Below, one piece after another: positions 3,444 to 20,037 of a DNA stretch of 64,000 bases. Positions within the stretch are counted from its first letter, which is position 1; each line of letters begins with the position of its first letter. This DNA is from an uncultured cyanobacterium. Lineage in GTDB: Bacteria; Cyanobacteriota; Cyanobacteriia; CAKZMO01. The position numbers were made by a program, and so were the translations under genes. The stretch lies in the NCBI GenBank assembly GCA_963719515.1, contig CAVRCJ010000003.1, forward strand, positions 480,001 through 544,000, written 5' to 3'. The notes under the pieces were generated by a model, which worked only from the letters and a program-made list of their open reading frames with translations, had not been told where the DNA came from and ran no database searches.

Positions 3444-6239
3444 ATGGTGTCGCCGGCCCAATGTGTGAGGAGTTCAGCTTTGATCAACATGCGCGTTCCA
3501 CTCAATTCTGCTAGGTCTATGGGCAGGCTGCACCAGCGCGTCTTCCTGTCCGCTTTTGGCCTCTGGGTTACGGTGGGCGCCCTGATGGGGTTGCCGGGTC
3601 CCACTGGGTTTGGTGTTCCTGGTGCAAGGGCTCAGTCGAGCGCTGTGGCTCCTCAATCTCGTCAGACGGTTCTAGTGCTGCACTCGCCGCTCGGCATGCC
3701 TTTATCTGAGCCTCAGCTTGCTGCGCGTTTTGGAGCAGCTGGCATTGACTACCAGCTGATTCGCTGGTCCCAGCTCAGCGATGTGTCTCTCTCTGGGGGT
3801 GCGGTCGGTCGTACCGACGAGGCTCCCATCTTGTTCCTCCCCAATGCCGAGATGGTGTCTCGTCAGCAGGTGGCTGCCCTGAGTCGTTTTCTGGAGTCGG
3901 GGGGACAGCTGGTGGTCACTGGCCGTATCGGTCTCGCGTCGCCCGATACCGTTCAGCAGGAGCTGCGATCGCTGCTTGGGGCGTACTGGGCGTTTCCGCT
4001 GCTGCAGCCGGCTCAGATCACCCCCGTCGCCGACCGCATGCCCGAACGCGCCGATACGATTGAGGGGGGCGTCGTTGTACCCCACAGTTCAGCAAGCCAC
4101 GTCATGGCAACTTGGCACAGCGACACTACCGCTGCCACCCCGCGCGACGCGCCTGCCGTTGTCAAGACCGGTCAAGTGCTGTTTTTAGGGTGGAACTGGG
4201 GAGAAGAGTCTGATCTGAATATGGACAGCGCCTGGCTGCAGGCCGCAGTCCTTCAGTTTGACAGCGACTTTGCCGTGGGTGGCCCTGCCGGCGATGGCGA
4301 TCCTGCCAGCGTGGAGGCTGGCGATACTAATGTGGTCCCCACTCAGCCCAGTCAACAGGCCAGAGCGCCTCAAATTGCCCCTAGTTCCCCTCCCGAGACT
4401 GCTGTGTCCGAGGCTCCCCTGGAGCTAGCGCAGGCGTCTGACGTCCTTCCGATTTGGCCTCGGGAAGCTAGCTTGATGGTTCAAGAGCTGGAGAGCCTGA
4501 TGGGGCGGTTCGAAAGCGCCCTGCTGATGGCAGATTCAATAGCGCCGTCTCTCAACGCCCAAGAGGCTCCTGGTGACGGTTCTGTCTTGGTGGCCTCTGC
4601 CTCGCTGGACTCGGCAGAACAGGTGCAAATTGCAGAACGCGATCTTCCTGCCGACACGGTCGACGGAAGATATTCCATTCTCGAGCAAACGCGGCAAACC
4701 CTCGACGAATTTCCGGTACTGGTCGCGCGGCGGGACTATGAAGCCGCGCGGCGGGAGTGGTTTGAGGCTCGGAAGCTTCTGTGGGACAACTTTCCCACCG
4801 ATCGCCCTGTCGCCCAGTCCGAAATTCGCGCCATCTGGCTCGACCGGGGAACCATCGTCACCGCGGGTTCCCACGACGAGCTCGCCCGTATATTTGATCG
4901 GCTGGCTCAGGCTGGGATCAATACCGTCTTTTTTGAGACCCTCAATGCAGGGTACACCGTCTATCCCAGCCGCGTTGCGCCCCAGCAAAATCCTTTAATT
5001 TCAGAAGATTGGGATCCCCTAGAATCTGCTGTCGAGCTGGCTCACGACCGGGATATGGAGCTACATGCCTGGGTCTGGGTGTTTGCGGCGGGCAACCAGC
5101 GTCACAATACGCTGGTGGACCAGCCCTGGGACTACCTTGGCCCAGTGCTAGCGCGTCGCCCCGACTGGGCCAATACCGACCATGAGGGAAACGCTATTCC
5201 CAAAGGGCAGACCAAGCCCTTCCTCGATCCTGCCAATCAGGGAGCGCGGCGCTATCTGCTGCGGCTGTTCGACGAAATTTTGACTGAGTATGATGTCGAC
5301 GGCCTTCAGCTCGACTACATTCGCTATCCGTTCCAAGACCCCAGCGCGGGTCGCTCCTATGGCTATGGCACAGCGTCTCGCCGTGCGTTCAAGGCTCAGA
5401 CGGGCGTTGACCCCACCACCATTTCCCCTAGCGATCGCGCCCTGTGGGAGCGCTGGACCGACTTTCGCATTGAGCAGGTCGACTCGTTTGTCTCAGCGGT
5501 GTCGCGCCTCGTCGAGCGCCGTCGCCCAGAGGCTATTTTGTCGGCAGCCGTTTTTCCAATGCCGGAGCACGAGCGCCGCCACAAGCTTCAGCAGGGCTGG
5601 GAGCGCTGGGCTCGGTCGGGGGAAGTCGACATCATCGTGACCATGAGCTATGCGATCGATACTCCGCAGCTTGAAGCGCTGGTCAACCCTTGGCTTGACC
5701 CAAGTCTCTCACCTGCGCTAGTTTTGCCCGCAATTCGGCTGCTGAATCTGCCCAACACGCTGGCGGTGGATCAGATTCAGGCACTACGAGATTTGCCCGC
5801 AGGGGGATATGCCCTGTTTGCGGCTGAGAACCTGACTCAAAACGAGTCTTTGCAGCAGGTCTTTCAGCGGACTCAGGGCAGCGTCGATGCTCCGGTGATT
5901 CCCTACCGGAAACCGTTTGAAGCGGCAGCAGCGCGCTACGAGGTTCTGCAGCGGGAGTGGGCCGTAACCTTAGGCAGCGGTAGACTTTATATCTCTTCGG
6001 AGCAGCAGGAGGAGCTGACGGAGCGAGCGATTGACCTCGAAGATGAGCTAGGAGATCTGGCGAGAAATCCGTCATCTAGAAATCTGCGTCGGGCAAAGCG
6101 AGAGCTACAGAGCTTCCGCCAAGATTTCTCCCAGTGGATGGATCTGCAGTCTATCAACGGTCGATATCGCGTTCAGGCTTGGGAGAACCGACTAGCGGCG
6201 ATCGATAGCCTGTTGGCCTACGGGGAAGAGCGGCGTTAG
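3444..6239 (+). CDS. Glycoside hydrolase family 10-like (GHL10/DUF187) exported protein
   Basis: EIRAIWLDRG, GINTVFFET, LHAWVWVF, VDGLQLDYIRYP; N-terminal signal-like region; true start may be downstream. Confidence 0.85.
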   Translation: MVSPAQCVRSSALINMRVPLNSARSMGRLHQRVFLSAFGLWVTVGALMGLPGPTGFGVPGARAQSSAVAPQSRQTVLVLHSPLGMPLSEPQLAARFGAAGIDYQLIRWSQLSDVSLSGGAVGRTDEAPILFLPNAEMVSRQQVAALSRFLESGGQLVVTGRIGLASPDTVQQELRSLLGAYWAFPLLQPAQITPVADRMPERADTIEGGVVVPHSSASHVMATWHSDTTAATPRDAPAVVKTGQVLFLGWNWGEESDLNMDSAWLQAAVLQFDSDFAVGGPAGDGDPASVEAGDTNVVPTQPSQQARAPQIAPSSPPETAVSEAPLELAQASDVLPIWPREASLMVQELESLMGRFESALLMADSIAPSLNAQEAPGDGSVLVASASLDSAEQVQIAERDLPADTVDGRYSILEQTRQTLDEFPVLVARRDYEAARREWFEARKLLWDNFPTDRPVAQSEIRAIWLDRGTIVTAGSHDELARIFDRLAQAGINTVFFETLNAGYTVYPSRVAPQQNPLISEDWDPLESAVELAHDRDMELHAWVWVFAAGNQRHNTLVDQPWDYLGPVLARRPDWANTDHEGNAIPKGQTKPFLDPANQGARRYLLRLFDEILTEYDVDGLQLDYIRYPFQDPSAGRSYGYGTASRRAFKAQTGVDPTTISPSDRALWERWTDFRIEQVDSFVSAVSRLVERRRPEAILSAAVFPMPEHERRHKLQQGWERWARSGEVDIIVTMSYAIDTPQLEALVNPWLDPSLSPALVLPAIRLLNLPNTLAVDQIQALRDLPAGGYALFAAENLTQNESLQQVFQRTQGSVDAPVIPYRKPFEAAAARYEVLQREWAVTLGSGRLYISSEQQEELTERAIDLEDELGDLARNPSSRNLRRAKRELQSFRQDFSQWMDLQSINGRYRVQAWENRLAAIDSLLAYGEERR

Positions 6240-14101: not shown

Positions 14102-15175
14102 CTAGAGCGAATTGGAGTCGAGTATAGGCCTAATTGCGTTGATGGGGACTGCGAAGCCAAGCCCCTGAGTGCCCTCTAGCACCGCTGTATTGATGCCGAT
14201 GACCTCCCCCGATGCATTCAGCAGGGGGCCGCCAGAGCTGCCGGGGTTGATAGCCGCGTCGGTTTGAATGAATGGACCCGGACGATCCGTGAGCTGCAGC
14301 TCTTTCCCCTGACGATTGATGGCGCTGATGATGCCCACCGTCACGGTGTTGCTCAAACCCATAGGGCTTCCGATGGCGATCGCCCACTCTCCTGGCCGCA
14401 GGCGATTTGAGTCTCCGAGAGTAACGGCGGGATAGTCTCCCTCTGCCACGCGCACCAAAGCGACGTCGAGGCTGGGATTACGGTAGACTACCTGTCCCAT
14501 CAGCGGGCGGCCCTGCTGCAAAATAATTTGAGCCTGTGGGTTGTTGCCGACAACGTGGGCATTGGTCACAATCAGTCCATCGGAGCGAACGAACATGCCT
14601 GAGCCGGAAAACGGCGAGGCGGTCTGTGGACCAGCCTGCGGGACAGTAGGCGCTCCTGGCTGCGGCTGATAGCCTGCTGGCCGAGCCACTGGGCGCACCT
14701 GAACAATGGCCGGACTAATATATTCAACTAGATCTGCGATTGAAGCGGGCGGGTGGAAAGCGTCAGGCGGCAGAGGATGGGGGGCTGTGGTGGGTGCAGG
14801 TGCACGAGGGGCAGTGACTTGGGGAGCCGCAATCTGGGGAGCAGCTTGAGGAGTGATGGCCTGAGGAATATCGCCCTGAACAGGGGACGACGGCAGGGGG
14901 GACATCGGGGCCGCTGTGGAAGGGCTGGGGAGGGGTGATGGGGCGGCTTTAGGCAAATTGAGCGATGCAGCCTCACGCCTGGGCTCTGCTGGCCGGGGTG
15001 CCGTAGTGCTGCGATCGCTCAGCAGTACCACAGCGGCGACGACGACAAGACAGTAGAGGAGCCGCGCGGCGGGAGTCGCCACAGGCACGGCAGAAGGCTT
15101 ACCTTGAGTCGTTCTCATCTGAGGCTCTGGCGGCTTTGATGGCGGACGAGATGACGGCTGAGGCGAATACGTCAT
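14102..15175 (-). CDS. HtrA/trypsin-like serine protease without PDZ domain, Pro-rich linker
   Basis: [30 protein letters not shown]; ends just after the protease domain. Confidence 0.88.
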   Translation of the reverse strand: MTYSPQPSSRPPSKPPEPQMRTTQGKPSAVPVATPAARLLYCLVVVAAVVLLSDRSTTAPRPAEPRREAASLNLPKAAPSPLPSPSTAAPMSPLPSSPVQGDIPQAITPQAAPQIAAPQVTAPRAPAPTTAPHPLPPDAFHPPASIADLVEYISPAIVQVRPVARPAGYQPQPGAPTVPQAGPQTASPFSGSGMFVRSDGLIVTNAHVVGNNPQAQIILQQGRPLMGQVVYRNPSLDVALVRVAEGDYPAVTLGDSNRLRPGEWAIAIGSPMGLSNTVTVGIISAINRQGKELQLTDRPGPFIQTDAAINPGSSGGPLLNASGEVIGINTAVLEGTQGLGFAVPINAIRPILDSNSL

Positions 15176-15590: not shown

Positions 15591-15789
15591 AAACTTTTAA
15601 ACTGCTTTGGCCCTGAGGGGGCTTTAGCTCGCTGCCCTATAGGTATTGAAGCAGCTATTTGAGCCTAGTTCTAGGGTGGGCCAGTACGGAAAGCCGTCTA
15701 CTGTCGGGCAAAGTGAGCAGAGTCGAAGCCGCTAGAATTGTGGGACAAGCTCGCGTAGCGTAGTGTCTCTCACGATTAGACTCAGAGCA

Positions 15790-16956
15790 ATGCAGAAAAA
15801 ACGTTTGGTTCGATTGTTTGCGGTAGTGCTGGGCGCGCTGCTGATATTGCCGGCGGTAGCCCTAGCGCCAGCGCAGGCTTCTCCCTTGCTGCCTTTGAGG
15901 CCAGGTCCGGCTCTGCTAGCTCAAATTCCGCAAAATCAGAATTTTGTCGCTAGCGCCGTTGAGACGGTGGGCAAGGCTGTCGTTCGCATCGACACGGAGC
16001 GGACGGTAACGCGCCGCTCTAGCAATCCCCTTTTTGAGGATCCCTTCTTTCGCCCGTTCTTCGGTGACCAGATGCAGGTCAATCCGTCTTTTGAGCAGCG
16101 GTTGAGGGGCCAGGGTTCGGGCTTCATCATCGATGGCGATGGCCTCATCTTGACCAATGCCCACGTGGTTGATCGGGCAGACCGGGTCAGCGTTCGGCTC
16201 AAGGACGGTCGCACCTTCAACGGTGAGGTGCTGGGGGCAGATGAGGTGACTGACCTGGCGGTGGTGCGTATCGTCGGTAGCTCTGACCTACCCGTGGCGT
16301 CGCTGGGAGATTCGGACCAGGTGAATGTAGGAGACTGGGCGATCGCCGTCGGTAATCCTCTCGGTCTTGACAACACCGTGACGCTGGGGATTGTGAGCAC
16401 TCTCAATCGATCCAGCAGCGCCGTGGGCATTCCCGATAAGCGGCTGGAGTTTATTCAGACCGATGCGGCCATCAATCCGGGCAACTCCGGAGGCCCACTG
16501 CTGAACGATCGCGGTCAGGTCATCGGCGTCAACACCGCCATTCGCGCTAACGCTAACGGTATCGGCTTTGCCATCCCTATCAATAAGGTAAAGGAAATCA
16601 CCCCTCAGCTGGCGCGAGGTGAGCAGGTGGAGCATCCCTACATCGGGGTGCAAATTGCCACGCTGACGCCACGAATTGCGCAGGACAATAACAGCGACCC
16701 CAATTCGACGGTAGTGCTCCCTGAGGTAAACGGGGTGCTCGTCACCGGGATTCAGCCCGGTACGCCCGCCGCCTCTTCGGGGCTTCGTCGAGGAGATGTC
16801 ATTGTGTCCATCGACGGCCAAGCGGTGACTTCTGCAGCAGACCTGCAAAACCGCGTCGACGATGCCCAGGTGGGTCAAAATCTACAGCTGCAGGTCCGCC
16901 GAGGAGAGCAGGCGGTTCGCATATCGGTGAGAACAGCGAACCTAGAGAACACCTAG
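15790..16956 (+). CDS. hhoA: HtrA/DegP family protease with one PDZ domain (HhoA-like)
   Basis: Signal peptide, [48 protein letters not shown]. Confidence 0.8.
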
Positions 16957-17064
16957 AGCTTGCCCAAATCTTTACTCTTAGCTCCGTACATTCACTCTGA
17001 GTTTATGTAATCTATGAGACTTAAGGGTCACAATTAAGAGGAGTGTTGCACAGCTCGTCTCTCT

Positions 17065-17098
17065 AAATCCCGGCCTCACCGCCGGGATTTTCCTTTTC
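17065..17098. terminator. Intrinsic terminator between convergent hhoA and moaD-like genes
   Basis: AAATCCCGGC-CTCACC-GCCGGGATTT followed by TCCTTTT. Confidence 0.8.
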
Positions 17099-17115
17099 TG
17101 TGGGCAGGACTGTGG

Positions 17116-17391
17116 CTAGCCTCCGGCAACGGCGGGCACAATGCTAACTTCGTCGCCTTCGTTGAGTGCAGTCTTTTGCCCTTCTAAAAAGCGAATGTCT
17201 TCGCTGTTGACGTAGAAGTTGACAAAGCGCCGCAGCTTCCCCTCATCATCGCAGAGGCGGGACTTAATGCCGGGGCACTGCTGCTCTAAGGAATCGAGCA
17301 GCGATGAAATGTCGCCACCTTCACAGTCAACCGTGGCCTGGTTTTTGGTAAATTTTTGCAGCGGGGTGGGGATGAGAACTTTAACGGTCAT
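17116..17391 (-). CDS. MoaD/ThiS/CysO-type ubiquitin-like sulfur carrier
   Basis: V.IPTPL, FVNFYVN.EDIRFL, C-terminal PAVAGG. Confidence 0.93.
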
Positions 17392-17495
17392 GGATTTTTA
17401 TAGGTCAGAAAATTAGTGACTAGAAGAGTTTTAGGTTGAACCCATCGACGGTAATACGCGAAGGGCGTACGACGTCGGCGGTGTTGAACACGTTT

Positions 17496-17524
17496 GTAGG
17501 GACATGGCATCGCCATATCCCTAC
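17496..17524. repeat. GTAG-type REP-like palindrome
   Basis: GTAGGGACATGGC-ATC-GCCATATCCCTAC. Confidence 0.7.
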
Positions 17525-17553
17525 GAGGTTTGAAGGATGATATCGTCTGCGAT

Positions 17554-18864
17554 TTACACGATGGTTTGCTGCCACTCCAGGCGGCCCAGGGTTTGCGCCC
17601 GCTCTAGCGCCCGCTCAAAGCTGTCGAGCTTCGGCTCAATGAAGAACGGCTCGCCGACGTGATCTTGAACGGCTTCTTGAGTTTTGAGACCGTTACCCGT
17701 GATGTAGGCCACCGTTGTCTCCTCGGAATCAATTTTGCCGGCTTCCACCAGCTTTTTGAGCACGGCAATAGTAGTACCGCCCGCCGTCTCGGTGAACACG
17801 CCTTCGGTTTCCGCCAGCAGCTTCATGCCCTCCACGATTTCCGCGTCGGTCACCGCCTCGATGTTGCCGTTGGTCTTGCGGGCCAGCTCTAGGGCATAGA
17901 CGCCGTCAGCCGGGTTACCGATAGCAATAGACTTGGCAATAGTGTTGGGCTTGACGGGGGTGATGAAGTCTCGCCCTTCTTTAAAGGCCTGGTAGATGGG
18001 GGAGCAGCCTTCTGCCTGAGCGCCGCTAAAGCGCACCGGCTTATCGTCTACAAGGCCGACTTTGACAAATTCCTGGAAGCCTTTGTAGATTTTGCCGTAT
18101 AGAGAGCCGGAGGCCAGGGGCGCAACGATGTGGTCGGGGAGCTGCCAGCCCAGCTGCTCAGCCACCTCAAAGCCTAAAGTCTTGGAACCTTCGGAGTAGT
18201 AGGGGCGCAGGTTAATGTTGACGAAGCCCCAGCCGTGGGTGTTGGCCACCTCGGAGCACAGGCGATTGACCTGGTCGTAGTTGCCTTCCACCGCCATTAG
18301 GGTAGGGCCGTAGATGAGGGTGCCCAGCACCTTACCGGATTCTAGGTCAGAGGGAATAAAGACGCAGCAGTCCAGTCCGGCGTGGGCCGCGATCGCCGCT
18401 GTAGAGTTGGCGAGGTTGCCGGTGCTGGCGCAGGATACGGTGGAGAAGCCCAGCTCCTGGGCGCGGGTGAGGGCCACGGAGACCACCCGGTCTTTAAAGC
18501 TCAGGGTGGGCATGTTGACCGCGTCGTTCTTGATGTAGAGATTTTTGAGACCCAGTCGGCGGGCCAGACGGTTGGCCTTGAGCAGCGGCGTCATGCCCGT
18601 CCCCACGTCGATGGGGGTATTGGTTTCTACGGGCAGAAAGGGGCGATAGCGCCAGATGGAGTTAGGGCCAGCCTCAATCACCTCGCGGCTCGTCAACCGT
18701 CGGATAGCATCGTAGTCGTAGCTCACCTCTAAAGGACCAAAGCACTCTTCGCAGACGTGCAGCGCCTTGGGCTCATACTCCGTCCCACATTCTTTACACT
18801 TCAGCGCGGTGAAGGTAGCGCTGTTGAGGCGAGGGTCGGTGATGCGGTTGAGGGACTGGGTCAT
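17554..18864 (-). CDS. thrC: Threonine synthase-like PLP enzyme with N-terminal Zn ribbon
   Basis: CKEC..CEEC ribbon, PTLSFKDR (PLP lysine), CASTGN, EGSKT, TGNGLKT. Confidence 0.8.
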   Translation of the reverse strand: MTQSLNRITDPRLNSATFTALKCKECGTEYEPKALHVCEECFGPLEVSYDYDAIRRLTSREVIEAGPNSIWRYRPFLPVETNTPIDVGTGMTPLLKANRLARRLGLKNLYIKNDAVNMPTLSFKDRVVSVALTRAQELGFSTVSCASTGNLANSTAAIAAHAGLDCCVFIPSDLESGKVLGTLIYGPTLMAVEGNYDQVNRLCSEVANTHGWGFVNINLRPYYSEGSKTLGFEVAEQLGWQLPDHIVAPLASGSLYGKIYKGFQEFVKVGLVDDKPVRFSGAQAEGCSPIYQAFKEGRDFITPVKPNTIAKSIAIGNPADGVYALELARKTNGNIEAVTDAEIVEGMKLLAETEGVFTETAGGTTIAVLKKLVEAGKIDSEETTVAYITGNGLKTQEAVQDHVGEPFFIEPKLDSFERALERAQTLGRLEWQQTIV

Positions 18865-18941
18865 GGGTTGCTCTCTCTTGAAAGTGGTTTCTTTTTCCTA
18901 GGTTGCTCGAAGTGTATCACGGCTAAAAAATTGGCGTCAAA

Positions 18942-18968
18942 CATACCCGACCTAAAGAGTCGGGTATG
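18942..18968. promoter_or_regulatory. IscR/Rrf2-family type-1-like operator
   Basis: Perfect inverted repeat CATACCCGAC-N7-GTCGGGTATG; close to IscR type-1 consensus ATASYYGACTRwwwYAGTCRRSTAT. Confidence 0.75.
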
Positions 18969-19212
18969 CCAAATCTCTCTTTGTGTAAGGCTCTGAGGCG
19001 ATTCTTCTGTAGCGGGCTTAAAAGAAACTCAGTTTTGAGGCCACAAGTTGACGGTCTATTTGGCCCAAAGCTTGACAAGGGCTACATCCAAAAGCGATCG
19101 CACTATAAGAAATCAACACCGTTAATCTGTCCGGTATCAGGGTCCCGTTGGCTATCGTGGATTGGCAGTGAGTCTGTTTGACAAATTTTATGCCCTTCTG
19201 CGGAGCTAACCC

Positions 19213-20037
19213 ATGATTAACCCTGTTGTTTGCCCCGAAACCTCCGCTAGTCTATGGGCCAGTTTTAGCTGGCAGACGTTTGGCTGGTTCAGCGACATCA
19301 AGCTGGTTTTAACGGCCCTACTCTCTCTCACTGTTTTGCCCTGGCTCATCAAGCTACCGTTCAGACGCTGGATCAGCGGTTTCAGCCTCGCTCTTCTGGC
19401 GCTCTATTTCATCGCGGCGTCTCCCACAGTGACAGCGTTAGGGCTGCAGGGGCTGACCCTACCGCTCGCTGCACCCCAGACGACCAGCGCCGACGCTATC
19501 GTTGTTTTGGGCCGAGGGGCAAATCTACAGACCGCTCGGCTCGAAACGGCATTTTCGCTGTGGCAGAGCGGGTATGCCCCCCGAATTTTTATCAGCGGTC
19601 GCGTCGATGCCCCCCAGATGGTTCAAAAGCTCAGAGCTATGGGGGTGCCAGAGCGCGCTGTCGACGGCGAGCCTTGCTCTAGCACGACTGAGGAAAATGC
19701 TCAGTACAGCGCCAGCATCCTGCAGCCCCAAGGCGTCAGCCGGATTGCCCTGGTGACAGACGGTCCCCACATGCTGCGATCGCTGCTGACCTTCCACAGC
19801 TTAGGATTTGACGTCACGCCTTACAAAACACCGCTGCCCAATACTCTAGGACAGTCAAGGTCCAAGTTTCTCATCGCCCGTGAGTATCTAGGACTAGCCA
19901 GCTACGGCGCTTTGGGGCGCTTCTTTCCGCGTACGGTTGCCTCGATGCCAGCGGTTCCCACTGACATCTCAGCTTCGCCGGATAGCGACGCTTTGCTTAA
20001 GAGCATTTTTGATAGCGCTGCAGCGCCCCGAAGCTAA
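19213..20037 (+). CDS. YdcF/ElyC (DUF218) family membrane protein
   Basis: ADAIVVLG, IFISG, S.TTEENA, LVTD..HMLRS, RE. Confidence 0.9.
   Translation: MINPVVCPETSASLWASFSWQTFGWFSDIKLVLTALLSLTVLPWLIKLPFRRWISGFSLALLALYFIAASPTVTALGLQGLTLPLAAPQTTSADAIVVLGRGANLQTARLETAFSLWQSGYAPRIFISGRVDAPQMVQKLRAMGVPERAVDGEPCSSTTEENAQYSASILQPQGVSRIALVTDGPHMLRSLLTFHSLGFDVTPYKTPLPNTLGQSRSKFLIAREYLGLASYGALGRFFPRTVASMPAVPTDISASPDSDALLKSIFDSAAAPRS

Follow-up and report, generated by a model that had tools for sequence, protein, structure and literature searches.

A MetM/MetO-like gene pair in an uncultured cyanobacterium and a conserved upstream operator that tracks an Rrf2-family protein

The gene pair and its promoter

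A 64,000-nt stretch of DNA from an uncultured cyanobacterium (contig CAVRCJ010000003.1, positions 480,001 to 544,000), referred to here as the window, carries the gene of a threonine synthase-like (ThrC-like) pyridoxal phosphate (PLP) enzyme, the gene of a ubiquitin-fold sulfur carrier, and a palindrome upstream of both (Table 1). Comparative analyses suggested that the pair belongs to the MetM/MetO route to homocysteine, and that the palindrome is an operator bound, probably as an activator site, by a cysteine-free Rrf2-family protein designated Rrf2-B. The probability of this combined reading is put at about 0.62. The genome holding the window (G000; 100% complete, 21 contigs) was compared with other genomes, identified below by further G-numbers, which included one small-genome family (f18, n=71).

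The original prediction described a ThrC-like enzyme co-oriented with a Gly-Gly-terminated carrier, and this was borne out by the open reading frames, the family models and the VAGG end of the carrier. The enzyme scored 341 bits against TIGR00260 and 304 bits against PRK08197 (cut-off 303), and these family models label it threonine synthase. Its N-terminus contains a CxxC..CxxC knuckle formed by C23, C26, C38 and C41, the PLP lysine is K124, and the sequence VNINLRPYYSEGSKT is found where ThrC has the motif VNS[VL]NPYRxEGQKT. The carrier gene lies on the same strand, 162 nt downstream of the enzyme gene, and adjoins it in 78/80, 57/60 and 42/43 related loci. The perfect palindrome that had been described upstream was also found, exactly at the position given in Table 1 and 77 nt before the ATG of the enzyme gene.

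Table 1. Positions of the gene pair, promoter elements and neighbouring features in the window.
Feature	Position	Strand	Details
MetM-like PLP enzyme, 436 aa	17554..18864	-	ORF 18864->17554; PALP family
MetO-like ubiquitin-fold sulfur carrier, 91 aa	17116..17391	-	ORF 17391->17116; ThiS/MoaD family
Palindromic operator, 25-bp core ATACCCGAC-N7-GTCGGGTAT	18942..18968	.	only site in G000 >20 bits
-35 hexamer TTGACG	18935..18940	-	1 nt from palindrome, 2 nt from operator core
Extended -10 (TG-n-TACACT)	18911..18919	-	18 nt past -35; 26 nt from operator core edge
Short palindromic dispersed repeat GTAGGGRC...RYCCCTAC	17496..17524	.	between both genes; 18 genomic copies
Terminator-like hairpin and T-tract	17065..17090	+	between carrier gene and convergent htrA-family gene

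The enzyme compared with threonine synthases

The search for a second thrC gene revealed a separate long-class ThrC in G000 (PF14821, TIGR00260), an E. coli/yeast-type protein located at L003:1498-2907 (G000:C14:232295 onward), and no short ThrC in the genome. Within the genus of G000, the short ThrC is missing in 5/5 genomes and the long class is present in 4/5; among other relatives, the long class occurs in 0/26 and a second ThrC-like gene in 25/26. A long-class ThrC therefore probably took the place of the short ThrC in this genus by horizontal transfer, and, as the window gene was kept through this exchange, it was the true ThrC that was swapped while the window enzyme stayed. In two relatives (G159 and G161; L246, L247), the second ThrC-like protein is of a third type of ~453 aa, placed on a long branch beside the short ThrCs, and G157, G160, G166 and G172 show weaker matches of similar strength.

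A draw of 150 genomes across the phylum (60 of the same class and 90 of other classes, with orthologues defined by E below 1e-220) revealed an enzyme orthologue together with a second thrC-like gene in 60/60 same-class genomes, and an orthologue at this threshold in 0/90 genomes of the other classes. A quick tree of 45 proteins, a set that did not include MetM of Streptomyces albulus itself, agreed with the separation from true ThrC that had been proposed, as the window enzyme fell in a 26-row clade with actinobacterial homologues (SH-like approximate likelihood-ratio support, SH-aLRT, of 99) and apart from 12 short ThrCs. Amongst solved structures searched by sequence, the nearest are ThrC (E 1e-61), with cysteine synthases at E about 1e-3. 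The enzyme shares with short ThrC (Aquifex 2zsj, Bacillus 6cgq, Thermus 1uim) the fold type II PLP core, the SFKDR lysine motif and the CASTGN loop, but differs from it by the extra four-cysteine knuckle, the altered substrate loop, its own clade and an obligate carrier neighbour. Residues of the canonical loop have a role in phosphate binding, and neither this loop nor a grouping with the short ThrCs was seen for the window enzyme. From these comparisons, the window enzyme is not the threonine synthase of G000.

Evidence for a homocysteine function

The Streptomyces route to homocysteine through a ThrC homologue and a sulfur carrier, which the original prediction mentioned, is real: the S. 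albulus pathway of MetM, MetO, MoeZ and Mec is credited to Hasebe et al. 2024 (Appl Environ Microbiol 90:e01247-24) in passages of PMC12172450 and PMC13759103. The latter source, GapMind 2026, includes these four S. albulus proteins and cautions against the frequent labelling of MetM as threonine synthase (PMC13759103). Cyanobacterial homologues of MetM/MetO are already in print as well (sections of PMC12172450), and the enzyme pair, taken alone, is unexceptional within a family that has been known since 2024.

The window pair resembles that of S. albulus in having a ThrC-like PLP enzyme followed by a Gly-Gly carrier, with MoeZ and a JAMM peptidase encoded at other genomic locations. The MoeB/MoeZ and JAMM (Mec) partners looked for in G000 were both found, as one MoeZ (PRK07411) and a 155-aa JAMM protein, along with ThrB (homoserine kinase) and separate ThiS and MoaD carriers. 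The moeZ gene adjoins the pair in 3/43 f18 loci (G181, G213, G236; L469-L471) and in 1/80 close loci (L079). Unlike the S. albulus operon, the window pair has no S-adenosylmethionine (SAM) riboswitch of that type in its upstream region (Rfam search of 16900-19300), having instead a DNA operator at a fixed distance from the -10 element; it also co-occurs with Rrf2-B, a NIL-ferredoxin and a DUF39 protein lacking its motif cysteine, and its carrier-dependent activity is inferred here from sequence. A closer actinobacterial link was provided by a Nonomuraea pair, 53.6% (enzyme) and 49.5% (carrier) identical to that of the window, which has a SAM-I riboswitch upstream (RF00162, 68.7 bits).

The genome search of G000 identified no MetA and no full-length gene of the MetB/MetY/MetZ family. 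MetX was considered and rejected, as the only candidate was a partial, apparently frameshifted hydrolase match far under the cut-off. This alpha/beta hydrolase (L219:1480-2491, on G000:C10) is split in two overlapping frames and adjoins a fatty-acid-desaturase-like gene and a GntR-like regulator, both named from sequence. In f18, 27 of the 28 genomes without the enzyme have two to three PF01053 (MetB/MetY-family) genes, and of the 43 genomes with the enzyme, 36 have none and 7 have one. This exclusion is not strict in the class draw, where a PF01053 gene was present beside the enzyme in 22/60 genomes.

Additional evidence was available from published work on other cyanobacteria. Transposon sequencing of Synechococcus elongatus classified as essential both copies of thrC and, next to one of them, the ThiS-family gene Synpcc7942_1781, which pairs with Synpcc7942_1782 (Rubin 2015, as tabulated in the supplement of PMC5464585). 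The putative Synechocystis counterparts of the pair are the thrC gene sll1688 (433 aa) and the carrier gene slr0821 (91 aa). In Microcystis exposed to threonine, thrC was induced 10.5-fold and its metO-like neighbour 6.8-fold; the thrC induction was returned to baseline by methionine, and the passages concerned report no SAM riboswitch (PMC12172450). The same portions of text give the Microcystis 'ThrC' as 51.6% identical to MetM and its neighbour as 47% identical to MetO (PMC12172450). This 'moonlighting ThrC' (Kim et al. 2025, PMC12172450) shares with the window enzyme the clade, the motifs in the printed alignment row, the metO-like neighbour and methionine-responsive expression, but it is read there mainly as a threonine synthase/deaminase, and the main text mentions neither IscR nor Rrf2.

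Altogether, sulfur replacement on O-phosphohomoserine, as put forward in the original prediction, appears well supported by the separate ThrC, the related pair under a SAM riboswitch and the replacement by MetB/MetY-family genes, and the window pair can with good confidence be assigned as a cyanobacterial MetM/MetO with a predicted homocysteine function.

Conservation and geometry of the operator

The operator reads CATACCCGAC-CTAAAGA-GTCGGGTATG. Because G000 contains 92 perfect palindromes with arms of at least 10 bp and a 7-nt spacer, the palindrome itself is unremarkable, and its weight therefore comes from conservation. The degenerate consensus AWWCCCGAY-N7-RTCGGGWWT, composed after the sites of the close loci had been viewed, was found with at most 2 mismatches at 77/78 close loci having at least 200 nt of upstream DNA (2 of the 80 loci were left out as having too little), and the best match in 390/390 shuffles had 4 or more; for these close loci the form AWWCCCGAC-N7-GTCGGGWWT applies as well. 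The 60 class genomes were drawn separately, and 58 of them contain the operator with at most 1 mismatch; with at most 3 mismatches it was present in 42/43 enzyme-bearing f18 genomes (G103 and G125 belong to both sets). Shuffled controls reached 3 mismatches in 1/300 cases for the class set and 1/215 for the f18 set.

The site is a 25-bp type-1-like dyad with an A/T spacer, and it agrees at 22/25 positions with the IscR type-1 consensus. The spacer is A-rich in 59 and T-rich in 18 of the 77 sites, orientation flips that would fit a DNA dyad. A matrix built on 62 distinct sites yielded a single G000 site above 20 bits, the weaker sites being at shuffle level (counts of 83/27/12/3 versus ~95/35/12/4), and a wider regulon in G000 was rejected on this basis. 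Scanning of 89 other loci detected no operator site of 16 bits or more, with the exception of one hairpin.

The position of the site relative to the promoter is also conserved. A TTGAC-type hexamer lies 2 nt past the site in 76/77 close relatives, and the distance from the operator core edge to the -10 element is 25-26 nt in 57/59 (class) and 42/42 (f18) site-bearing relatives. In f18, the -35 element is gone at 42/42 sites and this spacing is unchanged. A site that keeps its phase just upstream of a -35 that has disappeared is more easily reconciled with activation than with repression; the operator is thus likely an activator site and, being upstream of the -35, is likely untranscribed. A transcribed hairpin or RNA element was rejected, given the location upstream of the -35, the strand flips of the spacer and the Rfam results, in which no riboswitch was found and the one match was far under the gathering score and outside the operator.

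Candidate regulators of the pair

The original prediction of an Rrf2-type operator was supported by these observations, but the regulators it named, IscR and CymR, were not. G000 encodes two Rrf2 types, scoring 76.6 and 108.4 bits against TIGR02010 (cut-off 207.55), and no IscR was found in this genome; Rrf2-B (G000:C3:291480-291917) is cysteine-free and so has no ligands for an iron-sulfur (Fe-S) cluster. The other type, Rrf2-A, precedes cysK, is tied to it in 30/30 loci and carries a CymR-like MYYI tail. It was not found (1e-30) in 10/60 class genomes, where the operator is kept in 10/10, at 29-36 bits in nine; these nine genomes (9/9) have Rrf2-B and a site of full strength, which argues against a CymR-like regulator. 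Rrf2-A was rejected as the binder on this persistence of the operator and because the rrf2A-cysK promoter has a different 25-bp element of its own, AAACCCCAG-N7-CCGGRGTAT, over its -10.

That element, as AAACCCCAG-TGGARAA-CCGGRGTAT (L005:1440-1470, L100-L129), was seen in many relatives and probably serves a CymR-like protein of cyanobacteria for autoregulation. A stretch of ~20 kb including rrf2A-cysK occurs twice in G000 (C9:4523-24822 and C10:695441-717047, 98-99.5% identical), which may reflect a recent duplication or assembly redundancy.

Rrf2-B was scored in 58/60 class genomes, and in the remaining two a divergent form occurs, with the C-terminal motif intact. In these two genomes the operator sites have lost the A/T spacer; in G053, whose Rrf2-B is divergent, both operator arms carry matching changes. 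In G077 and G125 the Rrf2-B type or its divergent form is the sole Rrf2, and both genomes carry the operator. These correspondences make Rrf2-B the probable binder of the operator. We presume that Rrf2-B is the Slr0846 protein of Synechocystis. Slr0846 is catalogued as an uncharacterised IscR (PMC7058544).

DUF39, NIL-ferredoxin and their loss together with the candidate regulator

G000 also has a DUF39/HcyBio gene (PF01837; C11) and a NIL-ferredoxin gene. In Desulfovibrio and methanogens, DUF39 and NIL-ferredoxin yield homocysteine from aspartate semialdehyde (passages of PMC5764234), and the claim that G000 had no other homocysteine route was rejected as first framed, PF01837 being present. 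An alternative route should, however, be complementary to the enzyme, and the loss of DUF39 together with it led to the reinterpretation of DUF39 as a sensor. PF01837 was present in 60/60 class genomes, 58 of which gave E values of 1e-140 to 1e-154. In f18, any Rrf2, PF01837 and NIL-ferredoxin were each found in the same 42/71 genomes; these 42 belong to the 43 enzyme-bearing ones. G199 (94% complete) has the enzyme and carrier, and the searches found no Rrf2, DUF39, NIL-ferredoxin or PF01053 gene in it. The prediction that G199 had lost the operator was checked: of 13 f18 loci then newly examined, 12 had the site and G199 did not, its best match having 7 mismatches (shuffle level) with the extended -10 kept, and the site is present in the other 42/42 f18 loci.

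The DUF39 gene of G000 does not match the family motif TTGTFxxMCSSG, the invariant cysteine being missing. A metagenome pattern scan left open at the tested codon returned at least 120 loci, 119 of them family members, and among these 119 matches listed the motif residue is Cys in 115 and Glu in 4, which are of the cyanobacterial type. Alignment with 60 full-length Cys-type proteins revealed Glu in 8/8 core cyanobacterial proteins, with the second invariant Cys kept, and the loss of both invariant Cys in 6/6 aligned f18 proteins. The motif Cys presumably corresponds to the persulfide-bearing Cys of MA1821, and NIL domains bind methionine. The published account of DUF39 refers to 'a conserved cysteine' (PMC5764234). 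The DUF39/NIL-ferredoxin/COG2122 route of methanogens and Desulfovibrio (excerpts of PMC5764234) is thus matched in G000 by the presence of DUF39 and NIL-ferredoxin, but differs in that the G000 motif Cys is Glu (Cys in the 115 distant members listed) and the genes are unlinked. These substitutions suggest that the cyanobacterial DUF39 is probably catalytically disabled.

A search for solved structures by sequence revealed no relative of DUF39, plasmid and long-protein searches were empty, Atlas matches consisted of PF01837 clusters only, and the GapMind 2020 supplements list nothing for S. elongatus under the DUF39 steps. In another class, G148, G114 and G136 (L321-L323) have DUF39 without the motif Cys, two Rrf2 genes, a PF01053 gene and no close orthologue of the window enzyme; in these genomes the proposed sensor may act for a different route to methionine.

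Proposed mechanism

By analogy with Streptomyces and with CysM/CysO, MoeZ would adenylate and thiocarboxylate the terminal Gly of the carrier, and phosphate would be eliminated from O-phosphohomoserine by the PLP enzyme, with the thiocarboxylate adding at C-gamma. Carrier-Gly-homocysteine would then arise through an S-to-N acyl shift, and the JAMM peptidase or another hydrolase would free homocysteine from it. Rrf2-B would activate the promoter when methionine or reduced sulfur is scarce, and the strong -35 of most lineages would allow basal expression, which would fit a non-essential regulator of an essential operon.

Since Rrf2-B is without Fe-S ligands, it would need a partner. The co-loss described above points, tentatively, to the Cys-less DUF39 and NIL-ferredoxin as its sensor; they would signal the state of methionine or sulfur supply to Rrf2-B as CysK does to CymR, so that the three proteins could form a methionine-sensing module in place of a riboswitch. 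The CymR-CysK system of Firmicutes is similar in that a cysteine-free Rrf2 protein relies on a partner enzyme for sensing an intermediate of sulfur amino-acid metabolism. It differs in that the CymR-like protein of cyanobacteria, Rrf2-A, has a site of its own, whereas the operator tracks Rrf2-B, in that the proposed partner is DUF39 without the motif cysteine and not CysK, and in that the geometry suggests activation and not repression. An old DUF39/NIL-ferredoxin homocysteine machine, its catalytic Cys disabled, could have become a methionine/sulfur sensor licensing Rrf2-B at the single promoter of the successor route, a scenario to which we give somewhat less than even odds.

Contrary evidence and alternative explanations

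Several observations weigh against the MetM/MetO function or its proposed regulation. Slr0846 is reportedly an effector of psaAB, and G000 has no second site above shuffle level. The Microcystis orthologue is reported to make threonine from O-phosphohomoserine and to deaminate threonine in vitro; it gave only an unidentified peak with Na2S (no carrier is mentioned for this assay in the excerpts), and did not raise methionine in high-ThrC cells (passages of PMC12172450). Membership of the window enzyme in MetM depends on the second-hand identity of 51.6% from the same partly available source (PMC12172450) and on the Nonomuraea anchor. The JAMM gene of S. elongatus is non-essential (Rubin 2015, as tabulated in the supplement of PMC5464585), as is one of its Rrf2 genes, of unassigned A or B type (PMC5464585 supplement). 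For the sensor proposal, PF01837 and the enzyme co-occur in 60/60 class genomes, so that MetB/MetY replacement alone does not tell the two apart; G199 is a single draft genome, 94% complete, and the 28 losses in f18 may go back to one or two events within a streamlined clade. Additionally, the genes for Rrf2-B, DUF39 and NIL-ferredoxin were nowhere adjacent to each other, no operator site was found upstream of any of them, and the core cyanobacterial DUF39 retains 96/124 conserved columns as well as the second invariant Cys.

In the main rival explanation, the pair makes homocysteine but DUF39 and NIL-ferredoxin, instead of sensing, take part in catalysis or provide a parallel route, for instance by delivering reduced sulfur to the carrier, by releasing homocysteine in place of the JAMM peptidase, or by making it from aspartate semialdehyde. 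Such a role would agree with the strong PF01837 matches in 58/60 class genomes, with the retained Cys and conserved columns, with the known activity of both proteins in Desulfovibrio and methanogens, and with a JAMM gene that is dispensable in S. elongatus and only 76.7% conserved across cyanobacteria (PMC5464585 supplement). We consider it unlikely, as Glu stands in place of the motif Cys, the f18 proteins retain neither invariant Cys (6/6), the enzyme and carrier are essential in S. elongatus despite the PF01837 protein there, and G199 has the pair without DUF39, NIL-ferredoxin or PF01053, with the operator lost too. It is improbable that the operator serves the same enzyme function through Rrf2-A, an IscR or a non-Rrf2 factor, including one lost in G199: the match to the IscR type-1 consensus, the link of Rrf2-A to cysK and its CymR-like tail would favor such a binder, but G000 has no IscR, the site is at 29-36 bits in the nine genomes where Rrf2-B is present and Rrf2-A was not found, and the rrf2A-cysK promoter has its own element.

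Two further alternatives concern the reaction itself. The enzyme could be a second, bifunctional threonine synthase/deaminase with the carrier an unrelated neighbour, following Kim et al. 2025 (sections of PMC12172450), given both activities of the Microcystis protein in vitro and the TIGR00260 score. This appears improbable to a similar degree, since a distinct ThrC is invariably retained or substituted, S. elongatus cannot do without either thrC paralogue or the carrier, the phosphate-loop motif is unlike that of ThrC, the actinobacterial pair is under a SAM riboswitch, and loss of the pair is matched by MetB/MetY-family genes. Synthesis of cysteine from O-phosphoserine, as by mycobacterial CysM/CysO, was the other outcome offered by the original prediction and would use an identical parts list (a PLP fold-type II enzyme, a GG carrier, MoeZ and JAMM); it is very improbable here, as the enzyme is far nearer to ThrC than to cysteine synthases, CysK is present in G000, and the SAM riboswitch and MetB/MetY replacement indicate methionine. 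Cysteate synthase was also rejected as the identity of the window enzyme, being a separate gene on C11.

Implications for cyanobacterial methionine synthesis

According to a 2020 review, the steps before homocysteine in Synechocystis were undetermined (PMC7133116). Pfam-based annotation would assign DUF39 to this gap; with its invariant cysteine missing, the annotation of DUF39 as a homocysteine enzyme is doubtful, and the mislabelled thrC and its carrier most likely account for the missing steps. The operator would additionally provide a candidate target site for a conserved Rrf2 (probably Slr0846), and candidate functions are proposed for DUF39 and NIL-ferredoxin. If true, the sensing module would explain how cyanobacteria gauge their need for methionine, and the enzyme of an old pathway would have been reused class-wide as a regulator of its successor. 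A literature search, which did not extend to RegPrecise-type databases that possibly hold parts of this information, revealed no description of the operator, Rrf2-B as its binder, the Cys-less cyanobacterial DUF39 or the four-part co-loss. The MetM/MetO pathway itself was already known, and what is new here is that the operator tracks Rrf2-B, the Cys-less DUF39 and NIL-ferredoxin.

Additional observations

The G000 cysteate synthase (TIGR03844, 491 bits, above the cut-off; L001:5812-7134, minus strand, on C11) overlaps a GH3-family gene (4142-5911, minus strand), and the two genes possibly belong to a sulfonated lipid or metabolite pathway. The dispersed repeat between the enzyme and carrier genes is not specific to their operon. 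Just downstream of the operon, the window contains two divergent genes for HtrA/Deg-family proteases, at 14102-15175 (minus strand) and 15763-16956 (plus strand), the latter of which passes NF041521.

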